Below are positions 347 through 12,688 of a stretch of DNA of 12,688 nt, in pieces. The notes beneath the pieces were generated by a model. That model searched no databases, was not told where the DNA came from, and was given only the letters and a program-made list of their open reading frames with translations. Origin of the DNA: a virus; the UHGV virus genome UHGV-0208284; one strand, 5' to 3'. How positions within the stretch are numbered: the stretch's first letter is position 1; each line of letters starts with the position of its first letter. A program made the translations under genes and the position numbers.

Positions 347-844
347 ATGGATCGTGAACTGAAGAATCTTGCACTCAACATCAGTCAGGTAGCTGCTCTG
401 TCTGGATTGCACCGACAAACGGTATCTGAAAGGTTAAAAAAAATTAAAACCGCTGGTGGGCACGACAAACTTAAGTTGTACAAACTCACTGATATTCTGG
501 CTGAGTTATTGAAGTTGCCACCGCCTGTCGCTGAAGGGGAAATGGATCCTCACGACCGAAAAGCCTGGTATCAGTCAGAACGGGAACGCCTGAAATTCGA
601 ACAGGAAGTCGGAGAATTGATCCCTGCGTCTGATGTCGCCCGTGAATTTGCTGAAATGGCAAAGGCTATGGTGCAGGTTCTGGAAACTCTCCCCGATATT
701 CTTGAACGCGATTGTGCTCTTGAGCCTTCGGCTGTCATGCGGGTGCAAAGCATTATTGATGATCTGCGTGACGAAATTGCGCGGCGGGTGGCGGATGACA
801 GCAAACCGGAAGATGAAGAGGAGGAAAATCAGGAGGACGAATAA
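347..844 (+). CDS. Terminase small subunit (Nu1-like, N-terminal HTH, acidic C-terminal tail)
   Basis: 165-aa ORF immediately upstream of, and overlapping by 1 nt (TAATG), the large terminase. It has an N-terminal helix-turn-helix-like segment (ISQVAALSGLHRQTVSERL) and an acidic C-terminus (PEDEEEENQEDE). Position and architecture are typical of lambda-type small terminases. Confidence 0.7.
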   Translation: MDRELKNLALNISQVAALSGLHRQTVSERLKKIKTAGGHDKLKLYKLTDILAELLKLPPPVAEGEMDPHDRKAWYQSERERLKFEQEVGELIPASDVAREFAEMAKAMVQVLETLPDILERDCALEPSAVMRVQSIIDDLRDEIARRVADDSKPEDEEEENQEDE

Positions 845-2961
845 TGCCTGTGCAGGCGACCGCCAGATCTTTGAAACTGGATACAGGCCAGTTAATTAAA
901 GCGCCGCGCAGAATGCCTGTTGCCGAAGCGGTTCAAAAATTTATGCGAGTCCCTACATCTGGTGGCAACTCTGTTCCGTGGGATCCACTGGTTGCACCGT
1001 ATGTGATTGAACCCATGAACTGCCTGTCGTCCCGTGAGTTTGATGCGGTTGTTTTTGTTGGTCCTGCCCGTACGGGCAAGACTAACGGCCTGATTGATGG
1101 CTGGGTGGTTTATAACATTGTCTGCGATCCGTCTGACTTTTTGCTGGTGCAGATGACGCAGGATAAGGCGCAGGAGCACTCCAAAAAGCGCCTGGCAAGA
1201 ACATTTCGTTGCAGTCCGGAGGTCAGAAAACGCCTCAGCCCACGCCGTAACGATAACAACGTTCATGACAAATATTTTCTGTCAGGTAGCTTTCTGAAAA
1301 TCGGCTGGCCATCCATCAATGTCATGTCATCCTCTGATTTTAAATGTGTGGCGCTGACTGATTACGACCGATTTCCTGAAGATATTGATGGCGAAGGCGA
1401 TGGTTTTTCCCTGGCGTCAAAACGTACCACCACATTTATGTCTGCAGGTATGACGCTGGTGGAGAGTTCGCCCGGGCGTGAGATCACAAACAGTAAGTGG
1501 CGCAGAACATCACCGCATGAGGCGCCGCCCACCACAGGTATCCTTTCTCTGTATAACCGTGGCGATCGTCGTCGCTGGTACTGGCCCTGCCCGGATTGTG
1601 GTGATTATTTTCAGCCATCCATGGAGGCTATGACGGGGTATCGTGACAATCCTGATCCTGTAAAAGCGAGTGAAGCGGCTCATATATTATGCCCTCATTG
1701 TGGCAACCGAATCACCGCGGACATGAAACGTGAACTGAATGGACGCGGTGTGTGGTTGCGTGAGGGTGAGCTGATCGACAGGGAAGGGAATGTTACCGGA
1801 ACACCCCGGCATTCAAGGGTTGCGTCATTCTGGATGGAGGGGCCCGCTGCAGCCTATCAGACCTGGGCACAACTGGTTTACAAACTACTGACAGCTGAGC
1901 AGGAATATGAAGCCACAGGCAGTGAAGAAACACTGAAGGCGGTGATTAATACCGACTGGGGATTACCTTATTTGCCTCGTTCTGCACTGGAGTTGCGCAG
2001 TGCAGATGTGCTGATGCAGCGGGCCGAAGATTACGGTAAACGCCTGGTGCCACCGAAAGTACGTTTTCTTATTGCGGCAGTCGACGTGCAGGGTGGGAAG
2101 AACCGGCGGTTTGTGGTGCAGATTACTGGCTATGGTGAGGACGGCGAACGCTGGCTGGTGGACCGTTATAACATCCGGCATTCATTGCGCTGTGATGAAA
2201 ATGGTGAGGCTCTTCCTGTACATCCCGGCGCTTACCCGGAAGACTGGCAGTTGCTGGTCACCGATGTACTGGAGAAAACATATCCGCTCCAGTCCGATTC
2301 GTCCCGCAGAATGCCTGTGCTGGCAATGGCGGTTGACAGTGGGGGTGAGGACGGTGTGACCGATAACGCCTATAAATTCTGGCGAAAATGTCGTCAGGAT
2401 GGACTGGGCCGACGGATTTTTCTGATAAAGGGTGACAGCACGAAACGCCAGAAAATTATCACCATCACACACCCGGATAATACCGGGCGAAGCGATCGCC
2501 GTGCTGATGCCCAGGGAAAGGTGCCGGTATACCTCCTGCAGACGGATCAGTTGAAAGACCAGCTAAGCAATAACCTGCAGCGTGAATCTCCCGGGCCGGG
2601 GTACATTCATTTTCCTGACTGGATTGGAGAATGGTTTTACGAAGAACTGACCTATGAAGAGCGTGGCGCTGACGGTAAATGGCGTAAGCCAGGCAAAGGG
2701 AATAACGAAGCCTTTGACCTTTTCTGTTATGCCCATGCGGTCGCCATTCTGCGTGGCTATGAAAAAATCCGTGACTGGAGTAACCCTCCCCAGTGGGCAA
2801 GAGGGCAGGATGCTGACGCGGGTGCTTCGGCAGACAAACGCTCTTCCGGTGTGGCGGACAAGAAAAACGTTGCCGGAAGAAATGAGCGGCGAGAAGAAGC
2901 GTCGTCAGAAGCGTTATCCGGAAACTGGTTATCACTACCCCGAAACGGAGGCTGGTTGTGA
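844..2961 (+). CDS. Terminase large subunit (lambda gpA-like)
   Basis: 705-aa ORF with a Walker A P-loop (GPARTGKT, nt about 1060-1083) and two CxxC pairs forming a zinc-ribbon-like motif (CPDCGD ... CPHCGN, nt about 1588-1712). Size and domain order match the gpA family as I recall it; it follows the small subunit and precedes W-like and portal genes. Confidence 0.9.
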   Translation: MPVQATARSLKLDTGQLIKAPRRMPVAEAVQKFMRVPTSGGNSVPWDPLVAPYVIEPMNCLSSREFDAVVFVGPARTGKTNGLIDGWVVYNIVCDPSDFLLVQMTQDKAQEHSKKRLARTFRCSPEVRKRLSPRRNDNNVHDKYFLSGSFLKIGWPSINVMSSSDFKCVALTDYDRFPEDIDGEGDGFSLASKRTTTFMSAGMTLVESSPGREITNSKWRRTSPHEAPPTTGILSLYNRGDRRRWYWPCPDCGDYFQPSMEAMTGYRDNPDPVKASEAAHILCPHCGNRITADMKRELNGRGVWLREGELIDREGNVTGTPRHSRVASFWMEGPAAAYQTWAQLVYKLLTAEQEYEATGSEETLKAVINTDWGLPYLPRSALELRSADVLMQRAEDYGKRLVPPKVRFLIAAVDVQGGKNRRFVVQITGYGEDGERWLVDRYNIRHSLRCDENGEALPVHPGAYPEDWQLLVTDVLEKTYPLQSDSSRRMPVLAMAVDSGGEDGVTDNAYKFWRKCRQDGLGRRIFLIKGDSTKRQKIITITHPDNTGRSDRRADAQGKVPVYLLQTDQLKDQLSNNLQRESPGPGYIHFPDWIGEWFYEELTYEERGADGKWRKPGKGNNEAFDLFCYAHAVAILRGYEKIRDWSNPPQWARGQDADAGASADKRSSGVADKKNVAGRNERREEASSEALSGNWLSLPRNGGWL

Positions 2962-3176
2962 AGAAAGAAGAAGTTTATCAGACGCTGGTCATGGTGCGTC
3001 AGGCTTACCGGGACTCCCTTGATGGTAAAAGCGTTTCCTTTACCGGGGTGAATGGTCGCGCCATTACTAATCATGATCCCGCTGCATTACGTGCAGAACT
3101 TGAATACTGGGAAAAACGCTGGGCGGCAGTCTGCCAGCCCACAAGGAAACCGTACAAACTCGCTCGTTTCTCCTGA
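2958..3176 (+). CDS. Head-tail joining protein (lambda gpW-like)
   Basis: 72-aa ORF starting at GTG 2958, overlapping the terminase stop (GTGA), with a GGAGG ribosome-binding site 6 nt upstream. The pattern D-x3-GK-x-V ... GR ... L ... LE resembles lambda W, and it sits between gpA-like and portal genes as in lambda. Confidence 0.6.
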   Translation: MKKEEVYQTLVMVRQAYRDSLDGKSVSFTGVNGRAITNHDPAALRAELEYWEKRWAAVCQPTRKPYKLARFS

Positions 3177-3184
3177 GGATTTTT

Positions 3185-4696
3185 ATGGGTTTTTTTGATA
3201 AAGCACTTGGCGCAATTGCGCCAGGGTGGGCAGTTTCGCGTGCCAGAAACAAAATGCTGTTGAGGGCTTATGAAGCAGCGCAGCCTTCACGCCTGAATAA
3301 GGCCCGGCGCGAAGTCCGTTCGGCGGATACTGCTGTTTTTGCAGCCGGGACGTCATTACGTGAACAGGCAAGAGCGCTGGATGAAGATCACGATATCGTG
3401 ATTGGTCTGCTGGATAAGCTGGAAGAGCGGGTTATTGGCGCACAGGGGATCCAGGTCGAGCCGCAACCACTGAGAAGCGACGGCACGCTTCATGAGTCAC
3501 TGGCGGAGCAGATATCGTCGCTGTGGTCTGAATGGTCCGTTCGCCCGGAGGTGACGGGGATGTTCACCCGTCCGGAAGCTGAACGGATGGCGCTGCGATC
3601 CGCCTTGCGTGATGGCGAAATGTTTGTACAGCTGGTGCGCGGACCTGTCGCCGGGCTGAATCATTCCACTGTGGTGCCATTATCACTGGAGCTTCTCGAA
3701 GCAGATTTTGTTCCGGTTAATCTGAATACGAATGCAGGGCAACAGATCCGTCAGGGCATAATTCTTAATAACTGGGGGCGGCCTGTAGGATATCGCGTAT
3801 ACAAATATCATCCTGCAAATCTGCGCGGTTTCAGCGCCGAGCTCAAAACTGTTAAGGCGGACAGCATGCTGCATCTGGCGATGCGGAAGCGCCTGCATCA
3901 AGTAAGAGGTGTCAGTCTGTTACATGGCGTGATTCGCCGGATTGCAGATCTGAAAGATTACGAAGAATCAGAGCGAGTGGCTGCCCGTATTGCTGCCGCG
4001 CTTGGCTTCTACATTAAACGCGGTGATGCAGCCAGCTTTCCGACGGATAACGACTGGACACCTCCGGAACAAAAAAACCGATATTTTGATATTTCGCCGG
4101 GCATGATTTTTGACGAACTGGCACCCGGTGAAGATCTGGGAATGGTGGAGTCTAACCGCCCGAATGTTCATCTTTATGAATTCCGTAACGGTCAGTTGCG
4201 GGCTGTGGCTGCCGGAACCCGTGGCAGTTATTCCAGTATTGCCCGTGACTATAACGGCTCCTACAGTTCGCAGCGCCAGGAACTGGTGGAAGGTTACGAA
4301 GGCTACGGTGTTTTACAGCAGTGGTTTGTCGGTCAGTACAGTCGCCCGGTGTACCGGGCATGGCTGGAGCAGGCAAAGCCTTTTCTTGATATTCCCCCTG
4401 ATGTGGATATATCCACGCTTTTCAACGCAACTTATCTTGGCCCGGTGATGCCGTGGATTGATCCGGTGAAGGAGGCTGCAGCATGGCGGGCCATTCTTCG
4501 CGGTGGTGCCGGGACGGAGGCCGAGTGGATACGTGCTCGTGGGCAGTCACCGCAGGAAGTAAAACGCCAGCGACTGCGTGAAACTGAATTTAACCGGGAA
4601 AACGGTTTGGTGTTCGATTCGGATGCCGCTAACGATAAAGGAGTGATTCCTGATGCAGCAAATGACAAGTCCGCGTCTTCGCGGGACGATAATTAA
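3185..4696 (+). CDS. Portal protein (lambda gpB-like, putative)
   Basis: 503-aa ORF located between the W-like gene and the prohead protease, with a GAGGA ribosome-binding site upstream of the ATG. Size fits lambda-family portals. The assignment rests on synteny and size; I do not recognise a diagnostic motif. Confidence 0.65.
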   Translation: MGFFDKALGAIAPGWAVSRARNKMLLRAYEAAQPSRLNKARREVRSADTAVFAAGTSLREQARALDEDHDIVIGLLDKLEERVIGAQGIQVEPQPLRSDGTLHESLAEQISSLWSEWSVRPEVTGMFTRPEAERMALRSALRDGEMFVQLVRGPVAGLNHSTVVPLSLELLEADFVPVNLNTNAGQQIRQGIILNNWGRPVGYRVYKYHPANLRGFSAELKTVKADSMLHLAMRKRLHQVRGVSLLHGVIRRIADLKDYEESERVAARIAAALGFYIKRGDAASFPTDNDWTPPEQKNRYFDISPGMIFDELAPGEDLGMVESNRPNVHLYEFRNGQLRAVAAGTRGSYSSIARDYNGSYSSQRQELVEGYEGYGVLQQWFVGQYSRPVYRAWLEQAKPFLDIPPDVDISTLFNATYLGPVMPWIDPVKEAAAWRAILRGGAGTEAEWIRARGQSPQEVKRQRLRETEFNRENGLVFDSDAANDKGVIPDAANDKSASSRDDN

Positions 4697-6740
4697 TCCC
4701 CGTGCCAGCCTTGCGGGGGTGGATGCCGCTAATGGTCAGTGCTGGTACGAAATCCGGGCACAGACTGCCGGGCGGGTGGAAATTTTTCTTTATGACGTAA
4801 TTGGTGGATGGGGGATTTCAGCACAACAGTTCATCAATGACTGTAAGGAAGCGGGGGTGTTTGAGGCCAGCGCCATTGATTTGCATATTCACAGCCCGGG
4901 CGGCGATGTGATGCAGGGCTTTGCCATCTTTAACACGCTGTCACGCCTGAAAGCAAAGGTGGATATCTGGGTGGATGGTGTTGCTGCCAGCATGGCCTCC
5001 ATGATTGTCTGCCTGCCCGGCGCCACAGTACATATGCCGGAGAATTCCTGGCTGATGATACACAAGCCGTGGGGCGGCGCTTCCGGCGATGCGGATGATA
5101 TGCGTGATTATGCCGACTGGCTGGATCGCAACGAGGCGTTGATGCTGTCAGCCTACATGAATAAAAGCGGACTCGGGCAGGAGGAGCTGGAAGCCATGCT
5201 GAAAGCAGAAACCTGGATGAACGGTGCTGAAGCTGTGGAAAAAGGCTTCGCTGATACGCTTGAACCTGAATTACAGGCTGCGGCCTGTGTGAATCAAAAT
5301 AAACTGAAGGATTACCATAACATGCCAGAACAGATTAACGCGCTTTTTGCTCCGCGTGCAGAAACGACGAACGGACAGCAGCAGGAACCGAAAACAGCCC
5401 CGCAAAATGCACAACAGACAACTGCTCAGCAGGTGCCATCAACCGGAAATGTGGATATCAGCGCAATTGCTTCGCAGGTTCAGCAACAACTGATGGCAGC
5501 CAATGCGGAACGTGTGCAGGCTGTAACTGCAGTATTTGCCTCTTTCCCGTCTTATGCCGACCTGAAAGCGGAGTGTCTGAACGACATGACCTGTACGGAA
5601 GCACAGGCCCGTGAAAAACTGTTGCAGGCGCTGGCAGCCGGAACGACACCAAGTGCAGGTCCGGGAGCCATTCATATTCATGCAGGAAACGGTAATCTGG
5701 TTGGCGATTCCATTCGTGCAGCTGTCATGGCGCGCGCCGGATATGCCGAAGCAGAAAAAGACAATGCCTATAACGGCTTTACACTGCGTGAATTGGCGCG
5801 TGCTTCGCTGGTTGATCGCGGCATCGGTATTTCCGGTCATTCCGCGCCCATGGCGATGGTTGGACTGGCATTCACTCACAGCAACAGCGATTTCGGCAAT
5901 ATCCTGATGGATGTGGCCCATAAAGCCGCGTTGCAGGGCTGGGATGAGGCCAGCGAAAATTTTGACAAGTGGACCCGCAAGGGAACGCTGACCGATTTTA
6001 AAACAGCGCACCGCGTCGGGCTGGAAACTTTCCCGACGCTGCGTCAGGTATTACCGGGCGCTGAATATAAGTATGTAACGCTGAAAGATCGTGGCGAACC
6101 GATTGCACTGGCGACTTATGGCGAATTGTTCAGCATTGATCGCCAGACCATCATCAATGATGACCTGGATATGCTGACCCGTATTCCGATGGCTATGGGG
6201 GCGGCAGCACGCACTACTGTGGGAGATCTGGTCTGGGCTGTGCTGACCAGCAACCCCAAAATGTCGGATGGCAAACCGCTGTTCCATGCAGATCATGGCA
6301 ACCTGGTGACGGCAGATTTGTCTATTGAAGGGCTGGATTCCGGGCGTAAAGCCATGCTGCTCCAGAAATCAGGTGACCGTCGCCTGAACATTCGTCCTGC
6401 TTTTATGCTGACGCCTGTAGCCATTGAGTCGCGAGCTAATCAACTGATTAAGTCTGCCAGTGTGCCTGGTGCAGATGCGAACAGCGGCATTATTAACCCG
6501 ATCCAGAATTTCGTCACAGTTTTGTCAGAAGCCCGTCTTGATGACAACAGTCCGACGGATTATTACCTGGTGGCAGCGCAGGGGCGTGACACGATTGAAG
6601 TGGCTTATCTTGATGGTATTGATACGCCATATCTGGAACAGCAACAGGGCTTTACGATTGATGGCGCAGCCTTCAAGGTGCGCATTGATGCTGGTGTGGC
6701 ACCACTTGACTGGCGAGGTATGGTCAAAGTGAAAAAATAA
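4653..6740 (+). CDS. Prohead protease (ClpP-like, S14) fused to a Gln-rich linker and a C-terminal major capsid domain
   Basis: 695-aa ORF with an AAGGAG ribosome-binding site about 10 nt upstream, overlapping the portal 3-prime end by 44 nt. The N-terminal region of about 200 aa carries ClpP-like Ser and His motifs (GVAASMASM at nt about 4976-5000; MIHKPWGG at nt about 5054-5077). A Gln/Ala-rich low-complexity linker follows (nt about 5290-5650), then about 360 aa that I infer to be the major capsid domain, because no other capsid-sized gene lies between portal and tail genes and a strong terminator follows the gene. Confidence 0.75.
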   Translation: MQQMTSPRLRGTIINPRASLAGVDAANGQCWYEIRAQTAGRVEIFLYDVIGGWGISAQQFINDCKEAGVFEASAIDLHIHSPGGDVMQGFAIFNTLSRLKAKVDIWVDGVAASMASMIVCLPGATVHMPENSWLMIHKPWGGASGDADDMRDYADWLDRNEALMLSAYMNKSGLGQEELEAMLKAETWMNGAEAVEKGFADTLEPELQAAACVNQNKLKDYHNMPEQINALFAPRAETTNGQQQEPKTAPQNAQQTTAQQVPSTGNVDISAIASQVQQQLMAANAERVQAVTAVFASFPSYADLKAECLNDMTCTEAQAREKLLQALAAGTTPSAGPGAIHIHAGNGNLVGDSIRAAVMARAGYAEAEKDNAYNGFTLRELARASLVDRGIGISGHSAPMAMVGLAFTHSNSDFGNILMDVAHKAALQGWDEASENFDKWTRKGTLTDFKTAHRVGLETFPTLRQVLPGAEYKYVTLKDRGEPIALATYGELFSIDRQTIINDDLDMLTRIPMAMGAAARTTVGDLVWAVLTSNPKMSDGKPLFHADHGNLVTADLSIEGLDSGRKAMLLQKSGDRRLNIRPAFMLTPVAIESRANQLIKSASVPGADANSGIINPIQNFVTVLSEARLDDNSPTDYYLVAAQGRDTIEVAYLDGIDTPYLEQQQGFTIDGAAFKVRIDAGVAPLDWRGMVKVKK

Positions 6741-6741
6741 T

Positions 6742-6769
6742 AAAAACCGCCGGACAGGGCGGTTTTTTT
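6742..6769 (+). terminator. Rho-independent terminator downstream of the capsid gene
   Basis: An A-tract, then stem ccgcc (6747-6751), loop ggacag, stem ggcgg (6758-6762), then T7 (6763-6769). The A-tract/T-tract flanks could extend the stem to 9 bp, which would let it act in both directions. It lies 2 nt after the capsid stop codon. Confidence 0.75.
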
Positions 6770-6815
6770 ATGACTGAGGCGGCGTGGCAGGCGCCGCATT
6801 TACCGGAGAGAAAAA

Positions 6816-7145
6816 ATGTCAAAAAATTATGTTCAGGACGGAAAAACCGTTGAGTGGGTGAATGGTACCGGAAAGGCTGTGTTATCAGGCGATCTTGTTG
6901 TTCAGGATAATCTTATCGGCGTTGCGCATGCTGATATTCCTGAAGATGCATCCGGTGTTTTACATACGACAGGTGTGTTTTCTTTGCCTAAAGAAGCGGA
7001 GGCGATGACTCAAGGTAAGCTGGTGTATTTCAAAGCCGATACGGCAACGCTGACGGCAACGAAATCAGGTAATACGCTGGTGGGTACCGTCTGGTGTAAC
7101 GCTGAAACCAGTGATGCCACTGTGTGTGTACGTCTGGGGTACTGA
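6816..7145 (+). CDS. DUF2190-like small head protein (putative decoration/cement protein)
   Basis: 109-aa ORF with a GGAGAG ribosome-binding site. Motifs GVF-LPK, G-x-VYF, NTLVG and a C-terminal V-x-V-x-L resemble the DUF2190 family commonly found next to capsid genes. It does not resemble lambda gpD. Confidence 0.6.
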   Translation: MSKNYVQDGKTVEWVNGTGKAVLSGDLVVQDNLIGVAHADIPEDASGVLHTTGVFSLPKEAEAMTQGKLVYFKADTATLTATKSGNTLVGTVWCNAETSDATVCVRLGY

Positions 7146-7531
7146 TGAACAGGTTCCGACGCCTGCTTACAAACGCGGATGCCCGGGTAACCCGGGCATT
7201 TGCTGAAGAGATACCCGCATATCTGTTCCTCCGGGACGGAGAAAAACGGCCTGTGAGGGTGATATTCGAATCGCCGGATGCGACCGTCGGGATCCGTGAT
7301 GGTGGTGAAATTAATGATCATGCGCCAGCCTTCAGTGTCATGACAGCAGATATTTCCGGATTAATGAAACGTGATCAGGTGGAAATTAATGCTGATATTT
7401 TTCATGTGACACATATTGGCGCTGATGAGGAAGGGCGTACGCGGGTTACCCTCGCGCGGGGAGAACCCGGAAGAAGTACACCTGCTGCCCCTGTCCGACC
7501 GAGTAAACGTTATGGCAGTCAGAGAGCATGA
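7145..7531 (+). CDS. Head-tail attachment protein (lambda gpFII-like)
   Basis: 128-aa ORF starting at ATG 7145, overlapping the upstream stop (TGATG). Segments VRVIFESPDA and PAFSVMTADISGLMKRDQVEINADIFHVTHIGADEEGRTRVTLARG parallel lambda FII (VIRGVFDDPE ... SLFVRTDEVRQLRRGDTLTIG ... WLGRG) as I recall it. Confidence 0.6.
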   Translation: MNRFRRLLTNADARVTRAFAEEIPAYLFLRDGEKRPVRVIFESPDATVGIRDGGEINDHAPAFSVMTADISGLMKRDQVEINADIFHVTHIGADEEGRTRVTLARGEPGRSTPAAPVRPSKRYGSQRA

Positions 7532-8234
7532 ACGAAGCAGTGCCCGGCAGCGACGGCTGGCACGAAACCTCGTCGTTGATATTGATGAAGATGAGGTGCT
7601 GAAAATTATCGCGAAACTGGGTGGTTCAAAAAGTCAGATCCGTAAAGCCTGGGGTGTGGCGCTGAAAAGAGCCGCGTCCGCACTGCGGATGAAGGCCATG
7701 GCAGAGTTTAAAAAACAGGTTGCGCCACGCAGCCAGAAAATGATCAAAAACCGTGTTTTGAATGCTTTTATCATTCGTCGAAATGGCGATGAGTTTGATG
7801 AGGCGAAGGTATGGTTTGGCCTGAACGCCATCAAAGTACGTGATTTGCGCGGACGTATTACCGGTGGAAGGCGTGGTGAACGCCATCAGTTGCGCGATGA
7901 ACGGGGACGTTTTGCACCGGCCACACGCCGAAGACAGGCGAGGGAGATTCGTTTTAAACCTGCCGGGGAGGCAATACCGGTCACTACCTGGTCAGGTGAA
8001 GAGGCTTTCATTAATGAATTTGAGTCTGAAAACCGGAGCGGACGCATTTCACGACGTAAGACGGTACTGGTCCGGCAGGCATCCGGACGACGAAGGGTGC
8101 GCGAAGCAGAAATTGATATTTATGAAGCCATGCTGAACCGTATAGAGGATTTTGTTTTCCCGGATGCGGAAGCGCTGATCCTGAAAAATTTTGAGCATGA
8201 ACTGAAATTCCGGGTATTTAAGGGGCTGGAGTGA
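7512..8234 (+). CDS. Hypothetical Arg/Lys-rich virion morphogenesis protein (possible neck or tail-completion protein)
   Basis: 240-aa ORF from the first in-frame ATG that does not deeply overlap the FII-like gene (20-nt overlap). It is very basic (for example RRGERHQLRDERGRFAPATRRRQAREIRFK) and sits between head-completion and baseplate genes. Family not recognised. The start is uncertain because the ribosome-binding site is weak; the open frame extends back to 7416. Confidence 0.5.
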   Translation: MAVREHERSSARQRRLARNLVVDIDEDEVLKIIAKLGGSKSQIRKAWGVALKRAASALRMKAMAEFKKQVAPRSQKMIKNRVLNAFIIRRNGDEFDEAKVWFGLNAIKVRDLRGRITGGRRGERHQLRDERGRFAPATRRRQAREIRFKPAGEAIPVTTWSGEEAFINEFESENRSGRISRRKTVLVRQASGRRRVREAEIDIYEAMLNRIEDFVFPDAEALILKNFEHELKFRVFKGLE

Positions 8235-8797
8235 TGGAACCATTGATGATGGGAACCTGGCATCGGGCAGTGATTGACAGTCTGAAACAAATTCCCTGGG
8301 TGGAAGATGCCGATGACTACCCGGAAAAAGTGACGCAACTGGTGACGCCTGCCGTGTTTGTGGATGTACCCGGCTGGGACAAGGCTCAGTTTGCCGACGG
8401 GCAGACACGGGTCACGCTGAAATGCGATCTGTTTGTGGTGACTGATCGGGCCGGAAAGACGGAAAACGTGCCAAAACCGCAGATATTTGCCCGCTGTCTG
8501 GCAATGGATTTATCTGACTGGATTGATGGAGCCACGTTCGGGCTGGATAACGTTGACCCGGCGGTTTTTATCGATGCTGAGGTGGATACCTTCGACCGAC
8601 TGCTGGACGACTACATCGTTTTCCGTGTCTCTTTTGAACAGGACATTCCGGTCGGCGAAGATCCGTTTGCAGTTCCGGCAGGTGCGCCGTTACAGGAAGT
8701 CTGGCTGGGTAAAGTACCGGAAACCGGTAAAAAGCATGTGCAGAATTATCGTCTTATCTGGAAAGCGGAGGGCACCGGTGATGAGTCTGGCGGATGA
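8234..8797 (+). CDS. Hypothetical phage structural protein (possible tail-completion or neck protein)
   Basis: 187-aa ORF with ATG overlapping the upstream stop (TGATG) and GGAG 4 nt upstream. It is acidic and lies immediately upstream of baseplate V. Family not recognised. Confidence 0.5.
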   Translation: MEPLMMGTWHRAVIDSLKQIPWVEDADDYPEKVTQLVTPAVFVDVPGWDKAQFADGQTRVTLKCDLFVVTDRAGKTENVPKPQIFARCLAMDLSDWIDGATFGLDNVDPAVFIDAEVDTFDRLLDDYIVFRVSFEQDIPVGEDPFAVPAGAPLQEVWLGKVPETGKKHVQNYRLIWKAEGTGDESGG

Positions 8798-9404
8798 AGT
8801 GGCAGAGTTACGCCGCAGGGTGGCGGATATGGTCCGACGCGGCGTGGTGGAGGAGGTGATCCCGGGTAGCCCGGTGATGGTCCGGGTGGATATCGGGGAT
8901 GTGCTTTCACCGCCGTTGCCCTGGATTCAGGTGCAGTCCGGGCGTTACATGCAGGTCAGTAATTACCCGGCACCCGGAGATGCGGTCACGGTGATATCGG
9001 AGGCAGGTGATCTGCGTAATGGTCGGGTGTATCCGGGGGCCAACATTGACGCGATTCCGGTACCGGCGGGCAGTGAACACGAGCATGTTATTTTGTTTGA
9101 TACCGGAACGGAGATCCGTTACGACCGCCAGGCTAATGCCCTGTCCATCACGCTGGCTGAAGGCGGCAGCTATAAAATCACCGGCAGGGGAACGCTTGAC
9201 GGTCCGGTGGAAATCACGGATACCCTGACTGTGCAGGGAAAAACGAAGATTAATGCCGATACGCAGGTTCTGGGCAATATCGGTGCCTCACAGGAGATCA
9301 CCGACAAAACCGGTAGCATGAGTAAAATCCGCGAAATTTATAATACTCATGATCACCCAGGCGACAGCGGGGGAACCACCCGTAAACCTAACCAGGAAAT
9401 GTGA
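8781..9404 (+). CDS. Baseplate assembly/spike protein (P2 gpV-like)
   Basis: 207-aa ORF with a GGAGGG ribosome-binding site 7 nt upstream of the ATG. The C-terminal motif HDHPGDSGGTT (nt about 9349-9381) matches the conserved C-terminal motif of P2 gpV-family spikes as I recall it, and the size matches. The ORF track extends this frame upstream to 8487, but that part overlaps the previous gene and is probably not translated. Confidence 0.85.
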   Translation: MSLADEVAELRRRVADMVRRGVVEEVIPGSPVMVRVDIGDVLSPPLPWIQVQSGRYMQVSNYPAPGDAVTVISEAGDLRNGRVYPGANIDAIPVPAGSEHEHVILFDTGTEIRYDRQANALSITLAEGGSYKITGRGTLDGPVEITDTLTVQGKTKINADTQVLGNIGASQEITDKTGSMSKIREIYNTHDHPGDSGGTTRKPNQEM

Positions 9405-9405
9405 A

Positions 9406-9427
9406 CGCCGCACCGGCGTTTTTTTTT
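9406..9427 (+). terminator. Weak terminator-like hairpin plus T9 tract between baseplate V and W
   Basis: Stem cgccg (9406-9410), loop cac, stem cggcg (9414-9418), then nine T residues (9419-9427). The 5-bp stem is short, so at most a partial terminator or attenuator. Confidence 0.35.
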
Positions 9428-9439
9428 CGGAAAAATTTC

Positions 9440-9796
9440 ATGATTGGTATTGATTCCGCCACTGGCAGATATCTGCACGGTAACGAACATCTGCGTCAGT
9501 CCGTCACCGATATTTTATCAACACCGGTCGGCAGCCGGGTACTTCTCAGGGAATACGGCAGTAGGTTGTTCAGTCTGCTTGATAACCCGCAGGATGATTT
9601 TACGCGGGTGAGGATTGTCCGTGAAACGGCAACCGCCCTTGAACGCTGGGAACCCCGCCTGACCCTCCGGCGGGTGGAGGTGACGTGGACAGGAGAAGGA
9701 AGCGCCTGGCTGACGCTTGTCGGGGTGAACAACGAAACACAGGAAACGATTCGACTCGAGGAGATAAAAATTGGCAGCATCTCAGGCAATCATTGA
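9440..9796 (+). CDS. Baseplate protein (P2 gpW-like, gp25 family)
   Basis: 118-aa ORF. The motif STPVGSRVLLREYGS and an overall pattern (ALERWEPRLTL ... V) resemble P2 W / T4 gp25-like baseplate wedge proteins. The start is taken as ATG 9440; an alternative GTG at 9401 would overlap the V stop and place the hairpin/T9 inside the coding sequence. Confidence 0.8.
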   Translation: MIGIDSATGRYLHGNEHLRQSVTDILSTPVGSRVLLREYGSRLFSLLDNPQDDFTRVRIVRETATALERWEPRLTLRRVEVTWTGEGSAWLTLVGVNNETQETIRLEEIKIGSISGNH

Positions 9797-10685
9797 TCTG
9801 TCCGCGATACCTGTACCGGATGCGGTGGAGGTGCCGGACACCGCTGTACTGGTCACTCAGATAGTGGCGAAATATCAGGAACTGGACACGTTGTTTTCGG
9901 CCCTGGTGGAATCCGATCCGGCGTATAAATGGGCAGAGGCACTGGCTTTTCGGGTGGCGCTGATGCGCCAGCAGGTCAATGATGCTGTCCGGGCTGTACT
10001 GCTTGCCAGTGCCCGCAGGAACGATCTGGATCAGATTGGTGCGAATTTTCAGGTGCAACGTCTGGTGATTACCCCGGCAGATGACAGCACTATCCCGCCC
10101 ACGCCTGCGGTGTATGAAGATGATGACGCTTTTCGCGAACGTATTCAGTTGTCATGGGCACGACTCAGCACCGCAGGCGCGAGAAACGCATACCACTATT
10201 TTGCACAGAGTGCCGATCCTGATGTGCTGGATGTGAAAGCCTACGGACCGGAAACGCATTCACAGGAAGGGCGTGTTTTTCTTTATGTGTTAGCGCGTAC
10301 AGGAAATGGTACGGCATCACAACCTCTGCTGGATAAGGTGGCGGCGTCAGTCAATGATGATGAAATTCGACCCCTGACGGATTTTGTCAGCGTCCGTGCG
10401 GCAGAAATTATTCCCTACGATGTGGTGGCGGATATCCATATTCCCTACGGGCTGGATGGTGAACTGGTGATGAAAAATGCCCGCCAGGCGCTGCAGACCT
10501 ACACTGACAGTGTGCACCGGATTGGCTCTGTGGCGTCCTGCTCAGGTATGGACGGAGCCCTGCATCAGACGGGGGTGATTACGGTGGCACTGAAATCGCC
10601 GGCCAGTGATATTGTTCCGGCGATGGGGCAGGCTCCATGGTGTCGCTCAGTCACACTGAACAAGGTGGAGACAACCGATGAATGA
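9771..10685 (+). CDS. Baseplate protein (P2 gpJ-like)
   Basis: 304-aa ORF. IIDLSAIPVPDAV near the N-terminus and NDLDQIGANFQVQRLVITPADDSTIPPTPAV (nt about 10020-10113) closely parallel P2 J as I recall it. The apparent start is TTG 9771 with a GAGGAG ribosome-binding site 8 nt upstream; it overlaps the W-like gene by 26 nt. The first in-frame ATG is about 65 codons downstream, beyond the conserved N-terminus. Confidence 0.85.
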   Translation: MAASQAIIDLSAIPVPDAVEVPDTAVLVTQIVAKYQELDTLFSALVESDPAYKWAEALAFRVALMRQQVNDAVRAVLLASARRNDLDQIGANFQVQRLVITPADDSTIPPTPAVYEDDDAFRERIQLSWARLSTAGARNAYHYFAQSADPDVLDVKAYGPETHSQEGRVFLYVLARTGNGTASQPLLDKVAASVNDDEIRPLTDFVSVRAAEIIPYDVVADIHIPYGLDGELVMKNARQALQTYTDSVHRIGSVASCSGMDGALHQTGVITVALKSPASDIVPAMGQAPWCRSVTLNKVETTDE

Positions 10686-12688
10686 CAAAATCAGAAGCAT
10701 ACTACCGGTCAGCGCCACCCGGGCAGAGCGGGTGGTGGACAGTACTGCCGGTGATATGCTGGCGGAAATCGCGGTCTGTCTGATCCGGTATGTCAAAAAT
10801 CCCGATTTATGTCCTGCTGAATTGCTGCCATGGCTGGCCTGGGAAATGTCGGTGGATACCTGGAACGAACACTGGACAGAGGCGGAAAAAAGGGCGGCAA
10901 TAAAGCGTGCTGCCTATATCCATCGTCACAGGGGAACAAAAGCCGCACTGAATGAATCCCTGGCAGACAGTCCGTTCCGGTCGCAGATTGTGGAGTGGTA
11001 TGAGCAGACGCCACCGGGAGATCCCTATACCTTCCGGCTGAATGTGGAGCAGAAGGACCTGCCGGTTCTGATAAACGACCACCAGGATTTGAAACATGCC
11101 GTATTACGGGCAAAAAATCTGCGCAGCTGGTTCAGTGTTCATATTTACGGAAGTAGTCGCGGAAATGGCTTTGGTTATGGTTATGTCACCGCGACGGAAA
11201 AACTGAAAAACAGGATACTGCCGTCAGAAATACAGCTGATACCAGATAATCTGCGACTGATCCCCGGAGAAGAGGTGTCTGTAAAGGTGACGGTGCTTCC
11301 CCTGATTGCAGATGATCGTTCGTTTACGGTACAGATCGAAGATGAAGGCGTGGCGGCAATCAGTATTTCTGGCGATATTATTACTCTGACAGGGAAGCGG
11401 TTTGGTCACACCACTGTAATTGTTTCAACGGTGAATGGTGTGATTGCCAGACTGCCCGTAAATGTTGTGTCTGTTGTTCAGGTTATTGTTCGTGCTGATA
11501 ATGTCAGCAGACCTCTGTTTTTTACAGACGCTCAGGATAATGACTTCACCATTGATTATGGTGATGGAGTGGACTGCAGGGATTATGTCATTGAAGCAGG
11601 TATGGTTAAAACCACCCGGGAATTACCTGTCGGGGAAGAAATTACGCTGACGATTAAAGGTGCTGAAAGTGTGACATTCTACTCATCATCAGCATTAAAC
11701 AGACCCAACCCATTACTGGAGATTATCAGGGTCAGTGGCACCAGAAGATATATGTCGCAGTTTGCAAATTTGCAGAATACATTACGAAAAATTCATGCAG
11801 GTGCTTTTGATAATTTGCCTCGTGCACTTTCATTCTCAGGGGCGTTTCGGGGATGTTCAGCATTAACTGAATTACCTGAAAACCTTTTTGCACAATGTGC
11901 AGAGGTATCTTCATGGAATGAGGTATTTTACGGATGTACTGGTCTGACAGATATTCCGGTTTTATTTGCACCTGAATCAAATGCGCGCACGCTTTCAAAG
12001 TTGTTCTACGGTTGTTCGAAAATAGTCCGGGTTCCGGAGGCGTTGTTTGCAGGTATGGATGACGCCTGGACTTTTGAGTCAGCATTTTACGGATGCAGCA
12101 AGATGGTTAATGCGCCGGCCATTCCCGCACGCAGTCTTCAGAACCTTTACATGACTTTTTCCGGTTGTAGTGAGCTGACTGAGCTTCCTGTGATATGGGG
12201 GAAAGAAAACGAAAGCCATGCGTTATCGATTAATTTGTCTTACGCATTTTACGATTGCCGGTCTCTGACTGTTATTCCTGAAAACTGGCTGGATGTTATC
12301 CGACATCGGATAGCGCATGTCAGAGGGATATTTAATAGGTGCTCCAGCATACGCAGTGTCCCCTCACGATTATTTGCCGGAGCAAATAATCTACGCACTG
12401 CTGACAATGCGTTTAATGACTGCCGCGGTATTACCCGTATCGGAGAGGGGGTGTTTGAGGGATGCCGGAGTCTGAGCGAAATAAACGATGCGTTCAGTTA
12501 CTGCAGTGCGCTTGAGACAACCGGCAACAGGATTTTTGCGGATTGTGTGTCTCTGAGGTCAGTGGCATCTGCGTTTGCCAACAGCGGTATTGTTAATGCC
12601 GGAGAAGAGCTTTTCGCTGGTTGTACATCCCTGACATTAATGGAGTCCGTTTTTGTAAACTGCCGGAAACTGGTTATGTTGCCGGACA
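10678..12688 (+). CDS. Tail protein: P2 gpI-like N-terminal domain fused to an Ig-like (Big_2-type) domain and Cys-containing LRR-like repeats; 3-prime end beyond the window
   Basis: Frame open from ATG 10678 (overlapping the J stop by 8 nt) to the window end, verified codon by codon with no stop. The N-terminal segment NPDLCPAELLPWLAWEMSVDTWNEHWTEAEKRAAIKRAAYIHRHRGT closely matches the P2 gpI N-terminus as I recall it (NPDTCPANLLPWLAWAFSVDRWDEKWPEATKRAVIRDAYFIHCHKGT). Nt about 11221-11470 encode a bacterial Ig-like pattern (VSVKVTVLPLIADDRSFTVQIEDEGVAAISISGDIITLTGKRFGHTTVIVSTVNGVIA). Nt about 11830-12688 encode at least 12 tandem degenerate repeats with consensus F-x-G/D-C-x-S/A-L-T-x-I/L-P-x-x-L-F. 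Confidence 0.85.
   Translation, partial: MNDKIRSILPVSATRAERVVDSTAGDMLAEIAVCLIRYVKNPDLCPAELLPWLAWEMSVDTWNEHWTEAEKRAAIKRAAYIHRHRGTKAALNESLADSPFRSQIVEWYEQTPPGDPYTFRLNVEQKDLPVLINDHQDLKHAVLRAKNLRSWFSVHIYGSSRGNGFGYGYVTATEKLKNRILPSEIQLIPDNLRLIPGEEVSVKVTVLPLIADDRSFTVQIEDEGVAAISISGDIITLTGKRFGHTTVIVSTVNGVIARLPVNVVSVVQVIVRADNVSRPLFFTDAQDNDFTIDYGDGVDCRDYVIEAGMVKTTRELPVGEEITLTIKGAESVTFYSSSALNRPNPLLEIIRVSGTRRYMSQFANLQNTLRKIHAGAFDNLPRALSFSGAFRGCSALTELPENLFAQCAEVSSWNEVFYGCTGLTDIPVLFAPESNARTLSKLFYGCSKIVRVPEALFAGMDDAWTFESAFYGCSKMVNAPAIPARSLQNLYMTFSGCSELTELPVIWGKENESHALSINLSYAFYDCRSLTVIPENWLDVIRHRIAHVRGIFNRCSSIRSVPSRLFAGANNLRTADNAFNDCRGITRIGEGVFEGCRSLSEINDAFSYCSALETTGNRIFADCVSLRSVASAFANSGIVNAGEELFAGCTSLTLMESVFVNCRKLVMLPD
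11830..12688 (+). repeat. Tandem degenerate coding repeats (F-x-G-C ... L-T-x-IP ... LF units) within the gpI-like fusion gene
   Basis: The protein-level period is about 23-28 residues in the first half and about 13-14 residues toward the window end. At nucleotide level the motif attttacggatg recurs (11927-11938, 12080-12091) with a near copy at 12245-12256. GC content is about 32-48 percent per 60-nt line here, against mid-50s in the head genes. Confidence 0.6.

Follow-up and report, generated by a model that had tools for sequence, protein, structure and literature searches.

Terminators located behind major capsid genes are familiar, and a site homologous to the one studied here has already been annotated. 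In bacteriophage T7, the terminator T-phi lies downstream of the major capsid gene 10. In mEp460 (NC_019716), a rho-independent terminator is annotated at positions 6334 to 6353, in the gap that separates the head maturation protease/capsid gene from the head-decoration gene. Intercistronic hairpins described as mRNA decay terminators are found between pufA and pufL of Rhodobacter capsulatus and, as REP hairpins, between malE and malF of Escherichia coli. These stable, tail-less hairpins are thought to block 3' exonucleases and to raise the abundance of the upstream segment.

The gap between the capsid fusion gene and the DUF2190 decoration gene of the virus genome UHGV-0208284 was analyzed. 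The window, i.e., the whole stretch of DNA that was analyzed, comprises 12,688 nucleotides. The gap is 75 nt long and contains two hairpins, termed hairpin 1 and hairpin 2; a description of such a capsid-decoration gap was not found in the literature searched. Comparison with mEp460 revealed the same elements at the homologous position (a GCCC/GGGC stem, T7, the spacer GTACCTGAAAT, a second hairpin, and GGAG), although the stem sequences differ from those of the window and the first stem has 4 bp. The mEp460 record annotates the first hairpin only, and the second hairpin and its conservation are absent from it. Like T-phi, hairpin 1 directly follows the top-expressed late structural gene, and read-through is needed for the genes beyond. 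T-phi differs in that it acts on T7 RNA polymerase, consists of a single large hairpin, and is followed by a gene that does not encode a decoration protein, whereas in the window the host polymerase is in use and a Q-type antiterminator is probably involved. Hairpin 2 resembles the puf and malEF hairpins in being stable, tail-less, and intercistronic. The function of those hairpins was shown by experiment, whereas that of hairpin 2 is proposed here from sequence comparison. Furthermore, REP elements are dispersed repeats with a consensus, whereas hairpin 2 is single and has no conserved sequence: a scan of the window for GCGGCG-N5-9-CGCCGC revealed one site, and the stem sequence varies among relatives, which sets hairpin 2 apart from the REP/BIME class. 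What is newly shown is that this tail-less second hairpin, for which Rfam has no match, has been kept throughout a very large family of prophages while its stem underwent extensive compensatory change.

Anatomy of the capsid-decoration gap

The window carries the late structural operon of an enterobacterial prophage, and every gene is located on the plus strand (Table 1). The upstream cistron of the gap corresponds to a 99%-identical homologue in E. coli A19, which is named [quoted passage not shown] in RefSeq. The downstream cistron had been described as DUF2190-like in the initial annotation, which is borne out by the Pfam match (Table 1); it also matches PHROG 122 "head decoration" (E 1.8e-37). 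Connector genes and then P2-like baseplate genes are located 3' of the decoration gene. From position 347 to 12688, the window represents a hybrid phage in which a lambda-type packaging/head module (gpA terminase, lambda-family portal, ClpP-capsid fusion, and cement protein) is combined with baseplate, sheath, and tube genes of the P2 type; the two relatives examined also have a lambdoid early region, including a Q-like gene. Near the start of the window, a stop codon (55-57) is followed by a hairpin of 7 bp (GCAGCCC 69-75/GGGCTGC 87-93) that has a loop of 11 nt and lacks a T tail; a T-rich region and then the small-terminase-like gene are located further downstream.

Table 1. Coordinates of genes and RNA features in the late operon of UHGV-0208284
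Feature	Position	Strand	Evidence or remark
DUF1441 small-terminase-like gene	347-844	+	
gpA-type large terminase gene	844-2961	+	
Head-tail adaptor gene	2958-3176	+	
Lambda-family portal gene	3185-4696	+	
ClpP-like prohead protease/major capsid fusion gene (upstream cistron)	4653-6740	+	Pfam CLP_protease and Phage_capsid_4
Tandem in-frame stops TAA TAA of the capsid fusion gene	6738-6743	+	Sequence reading
A5 tract	6742-6746	+	Able to pair with the U tract and extend hairpin 1 to 10 bp
Hairpin 1, CCGCC/loop GGACAG/GGCGG	6747-6751/6752-6757/6758-6762	+	Terminator stem-loop
U7 tract of the terminator	6763-6769	+	Sequence reading
Spacer ATGACTGAG	6770-6778	+	One version of the AT-(A/G)-(C/T)-CTGA(A) motif
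Hairpin 2, GCGGCG/CGCCGC	6779-6784/6792-6797	+	Stem-loop (6779-6797) without U tail
Shine-Dalgarno sequence GGAG of the decoration gene	6805-6808	+	7 nt past hairpin 2 and 7 nt ahead of the ATG
Head-decoration/cement gene, 109 aa (downstream cistron)	6816-7145	+	Pfam PF09956 (Phage_cement_2/DUF2190), E 3.8e-27

Hairpin 1 starts 6 nt past the first capsid stop codon, and the second stop codon (6741-6743) overlaps the A tract beside it. The initial annotation had placed both hairpins, and its coordinates proved right to the base. Its proposed free-energy check also came out in favor of both structures. With the A/U extension, hairpin 1 reaches -15.2 kcal/mol (z = -4.2), a value attained by 0 of 200 dinucleotide shuffles; without this extension, the stem-loop has about -9.4 to -9.9 kcal/mol. 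Hairpin 2 has a stem of 6 to 7 bp, as an additional U6785-G6791 pair forms a seventh pair and leaves a 5-nt loop, and its energy of -14.2 kcal/mol (z = -3.0) was matched by 1 of 200 shuffles.

Terminator scores were calculated with our own implementation of the d'Aubenton-Carafa formula using ViennaRNA energies. Hairpin 1 obtained a score d of +30.7 with a tail score of 5.0. It was also the top-ranked site of a terminator pattern scan, where it was reported as its symmetric minus-strand reading, in a noisy scan with 18 sites in the window versus 12.5 expected. A G+C stem with a loop in the range of 3 to 8 nt, an adjoining U run, and a sense-strand position just past a stop codon that is kept in relatives were all found. 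By all sequence criteria, hairpin 1 is thus a canonical Rho-independent terminator. The attributes "strong" and "leaky," used in the initial annotation, go beyond what the sequence shows; the G+C stem is short, with 5 bp in the window and 4 bp in the Gifsy clade, so that "strong" is not established. The A5 tract lies outside the conserved core because it is not conserved in relatives. The A run opposite the T run gives the window copy of hairpin 1 a bidirectional look and is missing from most relatives.

Hairpin 2 is followed in the window by the tail AUUUACCG, which has a tail score of 1.46 and results in d = -25.2. It is not itself a terminator in the window because it has no U tail. The sequence 3' of the hairpin reads ATTTACC, GGAG, seven bases, and ATG.

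The gap was also inspected for a promoter, and this candidate was rejected. The TAT-N2-C sequence past the T run lacks the final T that is conserved in -10 elements, the corresponding -35 element would fall in the variable hairpin 1, and a promoter scan revealed none on the plus strand there.

Conservation of both hairpins and their strand asymmetry

Searches with the capsid domain yielded 80 genome loci and 80 viral contigs, in each of which the capsid stop and the decoration start were located. The comparison set consisted of 69 distinct gap versions from Enterobacterales with capsid identities of 64 to 100%. The genera represented include Citrobacter, Enterobacter, Scandinavium, Pantoea, Serratia, Rosenbergiella, Klebsiella, Yokenella, Kosakonia, Rahnella, Erwinia, and Morganella. 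All 69 versions revealed a common architecture, i.e., a short G+C hairpin, 6 to 9 T residues (with one interruption in two versions), a spacer starting with AT, a second G+C hairpin, 0 to 14 nt, GGAG, and the start codon. Hairpin 2 was found in every version (69/69), and the GGAG of the decoration gene was invariant across the gap alignments. A matching layout was identified in Gifsy-2, mEp460, VT1-Sakai, Hafnia phage yong2, and Citrobacter phage Chris1. Relatives from Pseudomonas have the terminator only, directly ahead of the Shine-Dalgarno sequence, and lack hairpin 2; high-G+C alphaproteobacterial relatives are mostly without a U-tailed hairpin.

For the scoring of relatives, a terminator-like site at most 120 nt from the capsid stop was counted as positive. 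Positive sites were present in 62 of 62 distinct relatives with a capsid identity of at least 85%, in 23 of 28 at 60 to 85%, in 5 of 10 at 45 to 60%, and in 3 of 28 at 25 to 45%, compared to 3 of 384 coding control windows (0.8%). Hairpin 1 had d > 0 in 65 of the 69 Enterobacterales versions. Hairpin 2 carries a U5-6 tail and scored as a good terminator in 29 of the 69, the window not being among them, which the initial annotation had not anticipated; it is tail-less in the clade of the window and throughout the Gifsy/Stx clade. Relatives whose hairpin 2 scores as a terminator tend to have a weaker hairpin 1. Where both hairpins are U-tailed, 20 to 30 nt apart, the arrangement is like that of the rrnB T1-T2 tandem terminators, unlike the window and the Gifsy/Stx clade with a second hairpin that lacks the U tract. 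In three IMG/VR loci, hairpin 1 is weakened by point changes (d ≤ 0), and hairpin 2 is U6-tailed with d of +31 to +35. This pattern suggests that the two hairpins can substitute for each other. Judged by these scores, hairpin 2 is a putative back-up terminator in some lineages and is conserved family-wide only as a stem-loop.

Among the 69 versions, the stem of hairpin 1 occurs in 12 distinct forms and that of hairpin 2 in 40, and every version pairs. When the arms of hairpin 2 were crossed between lineages, 51% of the positions paired, and full complementarity was obtained in 7.7% of the combinations. A structural alignment was built by hand around the structure and padded with N, so that its 100% pairing is by construction, and its sequences are phylogenetically related; the informative measures are the diversity of pair types and two controls (shuffles and slid partners). 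Changes on both sides were found in 13 of 16 pairs (4 of 6 in hairpin 1 and 9 of 10 in hairpin 2). None of 500 shuffles, which gave 0.161, reached the covariation score of 0.686, and slid partners gave at most 0.11. No structure was predicted by MAFFT and RNAalifold for 40 divergent gaps because the stems were misaligned; in a sequence-only alignment of 25 gaps from the Gifsy-type set, which is more uniform, the RNAalifold prediction contained hairpin 1 together with the core of hairpin 2. The loops of hairpin 2 vary in length and sequence. This result indicates that the structure of hairpin 2, not its sequence, is kept, and it argues against a sequence-specific ligand.

Because both hairpins are kept with altered stem sequences in hundreds of related prophages, the comparison indicates that neither is a product of chance and that both are real RNA elements. 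An intrinsic terminator after the capsid gene, as proposed in the initial annotation, is thereby supported by the full set of sequence features, by compensatory changes, and by the annotated site in mEp460. The gap thus provides a well-supported transcript boundary for the annotation of a common prophage head module, which occurs in Gifsy-type prophages, Stx-phage-like prophages, and P2-tailed lambdoid hybrids. The second hairpin, ignored by annotators, is subject to selection for its RNA structure in all distinct versions from Enterobacterales that were compared.

The strand of the functional molecule was deduced from the following features. The T run is located 3' of hairpin 1 on the plus strand in all versions. 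In the hairpin 2 region, the plus-strand RNA folds better in 45 of 55 distinct versions, with mean energies of -14.5 versus -11.9 kcal/mol. G-U pairs in this region number 58 on the plus strand versus 9 on the minus strand. These results indicate that the functional molecule is the sense transcript.

The same data bear on a small RNA encoded on the minus strand, which would consist of the reverse complements of hairpin 2 and then hairpin 1 with a U5 run provided by the A5 tract. An Rfam search of the window gave one match, STnc370 (RF02064), which covers the full model on the minus strand from 6736 to 6800 with 33.5 bits (E 0.2 for the whole window), and the symmetry of hairpin 1 in the window, where it is flanked by A5 and T7, agrees with such a transcript. 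STnc370 is like the gap in having a small hairpin and then a terminator hairpin between A and U runs. However, the match lies far below the gathering score of 54, falls mostly on the generic terminator part, is on the strand opposite the conserved features, and has no common sequence outside the terminator. It was therefore rejected as a generic hairpin-plus-terminator resemblance. The A tract needed for a minus-strand U tail is missing from most relatives, Rfam gave no match in the gaps of seven relatives, no promoter-like site was found upstream near 6800 to 6860 on the minus strand, and it is the plus strand that folds better and carries the G-U pairs. A minus-strand small RNA is consequently hardly credible.

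Known small RNAs of prophages do not correspond to the gap element. In Sakai Sp12, HnrS/EcOnc10-12 are encoded between lysis and terminase genes; the Pas small RNAs, AgvB, and AsxR are located in the Q/moron/lysis region, and sRNA-17 is located in a gap of more than 1 kb. An antisense open reading frame (6605-6799, minus strand, 64 codons) starts at the 3' edge of hairpin 2 and reaches into the capsid gene. Many relatives keep this frame open. However, it extends across the terminator, has no other support, and was rejected as a gene.

The gap is also a mosaic junction. In dozens of relatives, the capsid domain is 89 to 92% identical and the decoration protein 41 to 50% identical. This mismatch indicates that recombination has repeatedly joined different modules at or near the terminator. 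Moreover, the spacer motif is better conserved in sequence than either stem, and the T run and the spacer motif are the most conserved bases of the gap. Both observations would suit an element acting at the DNA level, either a short conserved linker that promotes recombination of head-gene modules or a palindrome bound by a protein; hairpin 2 would then have no function as RNA. Linkers and protein sites conserve sequence, whereas here the stems vary and complementarity alone is kept, and the strand asymmetry of the G-U pairs cannot come from a constraint on DNA. We regard a DNA-level element as very improbable.

Hairpin 1 in a putatively antiterminated late operon

The initial annotation had interpreted hairpin 1 as a leaky terminator that keeps capsid transcript levels above those of the downstream genes. 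In its plain form, this attenuator would stop a fixed fraction of late transcripts at hairpin 1, whereas hairpin 2, as a second terminator that is degenerate or kept as a back-up, would have no role of its own. Hairpin 1 is canonical, and its short stem suggests incomplete efficiency; in addition, hairpin 2 scores as a terminator in the 29 relatives mentioned above. Inefficient terminators that balance expression have been documented in phages, according to a preprint on Pseudomonas phage LUZ7, which cites T7 in this context (10.1101/2022.03.18.484859).

The operon context argues against plain attenuation. Two relatives, the E. coli A19 prophage (capsid domain 99% identical) and Citrobacter phage Chris1, were inspected in full, and both are lambdoid. 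In both, RusA, DUF968, and a Q-like antiterminator gene are positioned ahead of the lysis genes and the late operon in one orientation. The Q-like genes belong to phrog_753 (E 2e-74 and 5e-60, respectively). They come from these two relatives, which may be mosaic; the window itself ends short of the early region. In lambdoid phages, Q-loaded RNA polymerase ignores intrinsic terminators. A second canonical terminator was identified within the operon of the window at 9405 to 9427. It consists of ACGCCG (9405-9410) and CGGCGT (9414-9419) followed by T9, is located after the TGA of a baseplate V-like gene (9402-9427 with the stop codon) and just ahead of a gpW/gp25-like gene, and is not accompanied by a second hairpin. 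A terminator inside the operon fits an operon that needs processive antitermination. The Q-like genes of the relatives and this second terminator together suggest that late transcription is probably terminator resistant, which weakens the simple attenuation model. Furthermore, cement/decoration proteins are needed in roughly capsid-like copy number, so a step-down of the transcript at this position is not an obvious solution to stoichiometry. A degenerate relic would also not keep pairing through 40 stems in clades that were never U-tailed. The initial annotation is thus only partly supported, as its terminator stands as a canonical element, but its use as a plain leaky attenuator appears improbable.

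The reading to which we give slightly more credence than doubt is a two-part module at the 3' boundary of the capsid message, in which hairpin 1 would terminate unmodified polymerase and both hairpins would protect the RNA made by read-through. RNA polymerase that has not been modified by the antiterminator, i.e., in the lysogen or before Q acts, would stop at hairpin 1, and a transcript ending just past the capsid gene would result. The late lytic operon would probably be read by Q-modified, terminator-resistant polymerase, which would largely override hairpin 1, so that both hairpins would be embedded in polycistronic RNA. There, they would most likely block 3'-to-5' exonucleolytic decay, stabilize the upstream RNA, and allow the capsid segment to outlive the distal message. 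In the relatives with a U6-tailed hairpin 2, this hairpin would serve as a back-up (tandem) terminator.

Role of hairpin 2 and of the spacer motif

A role of hairpin 2 in RNA stability or processing had been proposed in the initial annotation, and it fits the conservation of the structure despite varying loop and stem sequences. As a stable tail-less stem-loop that is located between two cistrons and kept as a structure, hairpin 2 has the structural features of the decay-barrier class. This assignment within the boundary module rests mainly on exclusion. The rejected alternatives include an RNase III site, as stems of 6 to 10 bp are too short for this enzyme, and insulation or sequestration of the Shine-Dalgarno sequence by hairpin 2. 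The predicted accessibility of the Shine-Dalgarno sequence and AUG was 0.51 with hairpin 2 intact, 0.53 with hairpin 2 disrupted, and 0.46 with hairpin 2 deleted, i.e., without consistent change.

The location of hairpin 2 is equally compatible with a role in the downstream cistron. In every Enterobacterales version, hairpin 2 ends 0 to 14 nt ahead of the invariant GGAG. It might therefore act as a 5'-untranslated-region element of the decoration message, with hairpin 1 still serving as the terminator. It would either shield a new 5' end from RNase E after cleavage of the A/U-rich spacer or influence the structure around the ribosome-binding site, e.g., by placing the U-rich tract near the Shine-Dalgarno sequence. 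The single-stranded spacer between the hairpins resembles the known layout of RNase E sites, hairpin 2 is tail-less in the clade of the window and in the whole Gifsy/Stx clade, and the Pseudomonas relatives, which have a different ribosome-binding context, are without hairpin 2. However, the predicted accessibility is the same with or without the hairpin, and a U6-tailed, terminator-like hairpin 2, as in the 29 relatives, would remove the downstream gene from the transcript. The similarity of hairpin 2 also follows the upstream and the downstream flanks about equally, with too few discordant pairs to favor either side. We consider a role in the 5' untranslated region rather unlikely, although it is the main rival of the boundary module.

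If hairpin 2 controls the balance of capsid and decoration protein or the stability of the late mRNA, it would represent a simple and widespread post-transcriptional tuning in a Q-antiterminated operon and, in addition, a compact part for synthetic operon design. These results are of modest practical value and do not overturn current understanding.

The conserved spacer is left unexplained by the boundary module. Hairpin 2 and the AT-R-Y-CTGAA spacer might together form a specific cis-regulatory RNA motif that has not been described before and has a function of its own, a suggestion that we make tentatively and hold to be more doubtful than probable. Such a motif could be a processing site that uncouples the capsid and decoration messages or a protein-bound operator that sets the capsid-to-decoration ratio, and its function would then go beyond generic termination or exonuclease blocking. 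The candidate motif family would comprise a very large set of enterobacterial prophage head modules, including those of Gifsy-2 and of lambdoid prophages of E. coli O157.

When viral contigs were scanned for GGGC-T7-AT-NN-CTGAA, at least 80 loci were obtained. Among the matches listed, 56 represent the capsid-decoration junction with hairpin 2. The other 24 lack a capsid homologue upstream and a capsid or decoration homologue nearby, and the downstream stretch covered contains no obvious second hairpin. In these cases, which include six individual IMG/VR loci, the sequence follows terminators in unrelated phage contexts. GGGC-T7-AT-NN-CTGAA may reflect a general sequence preference just past U tracts.
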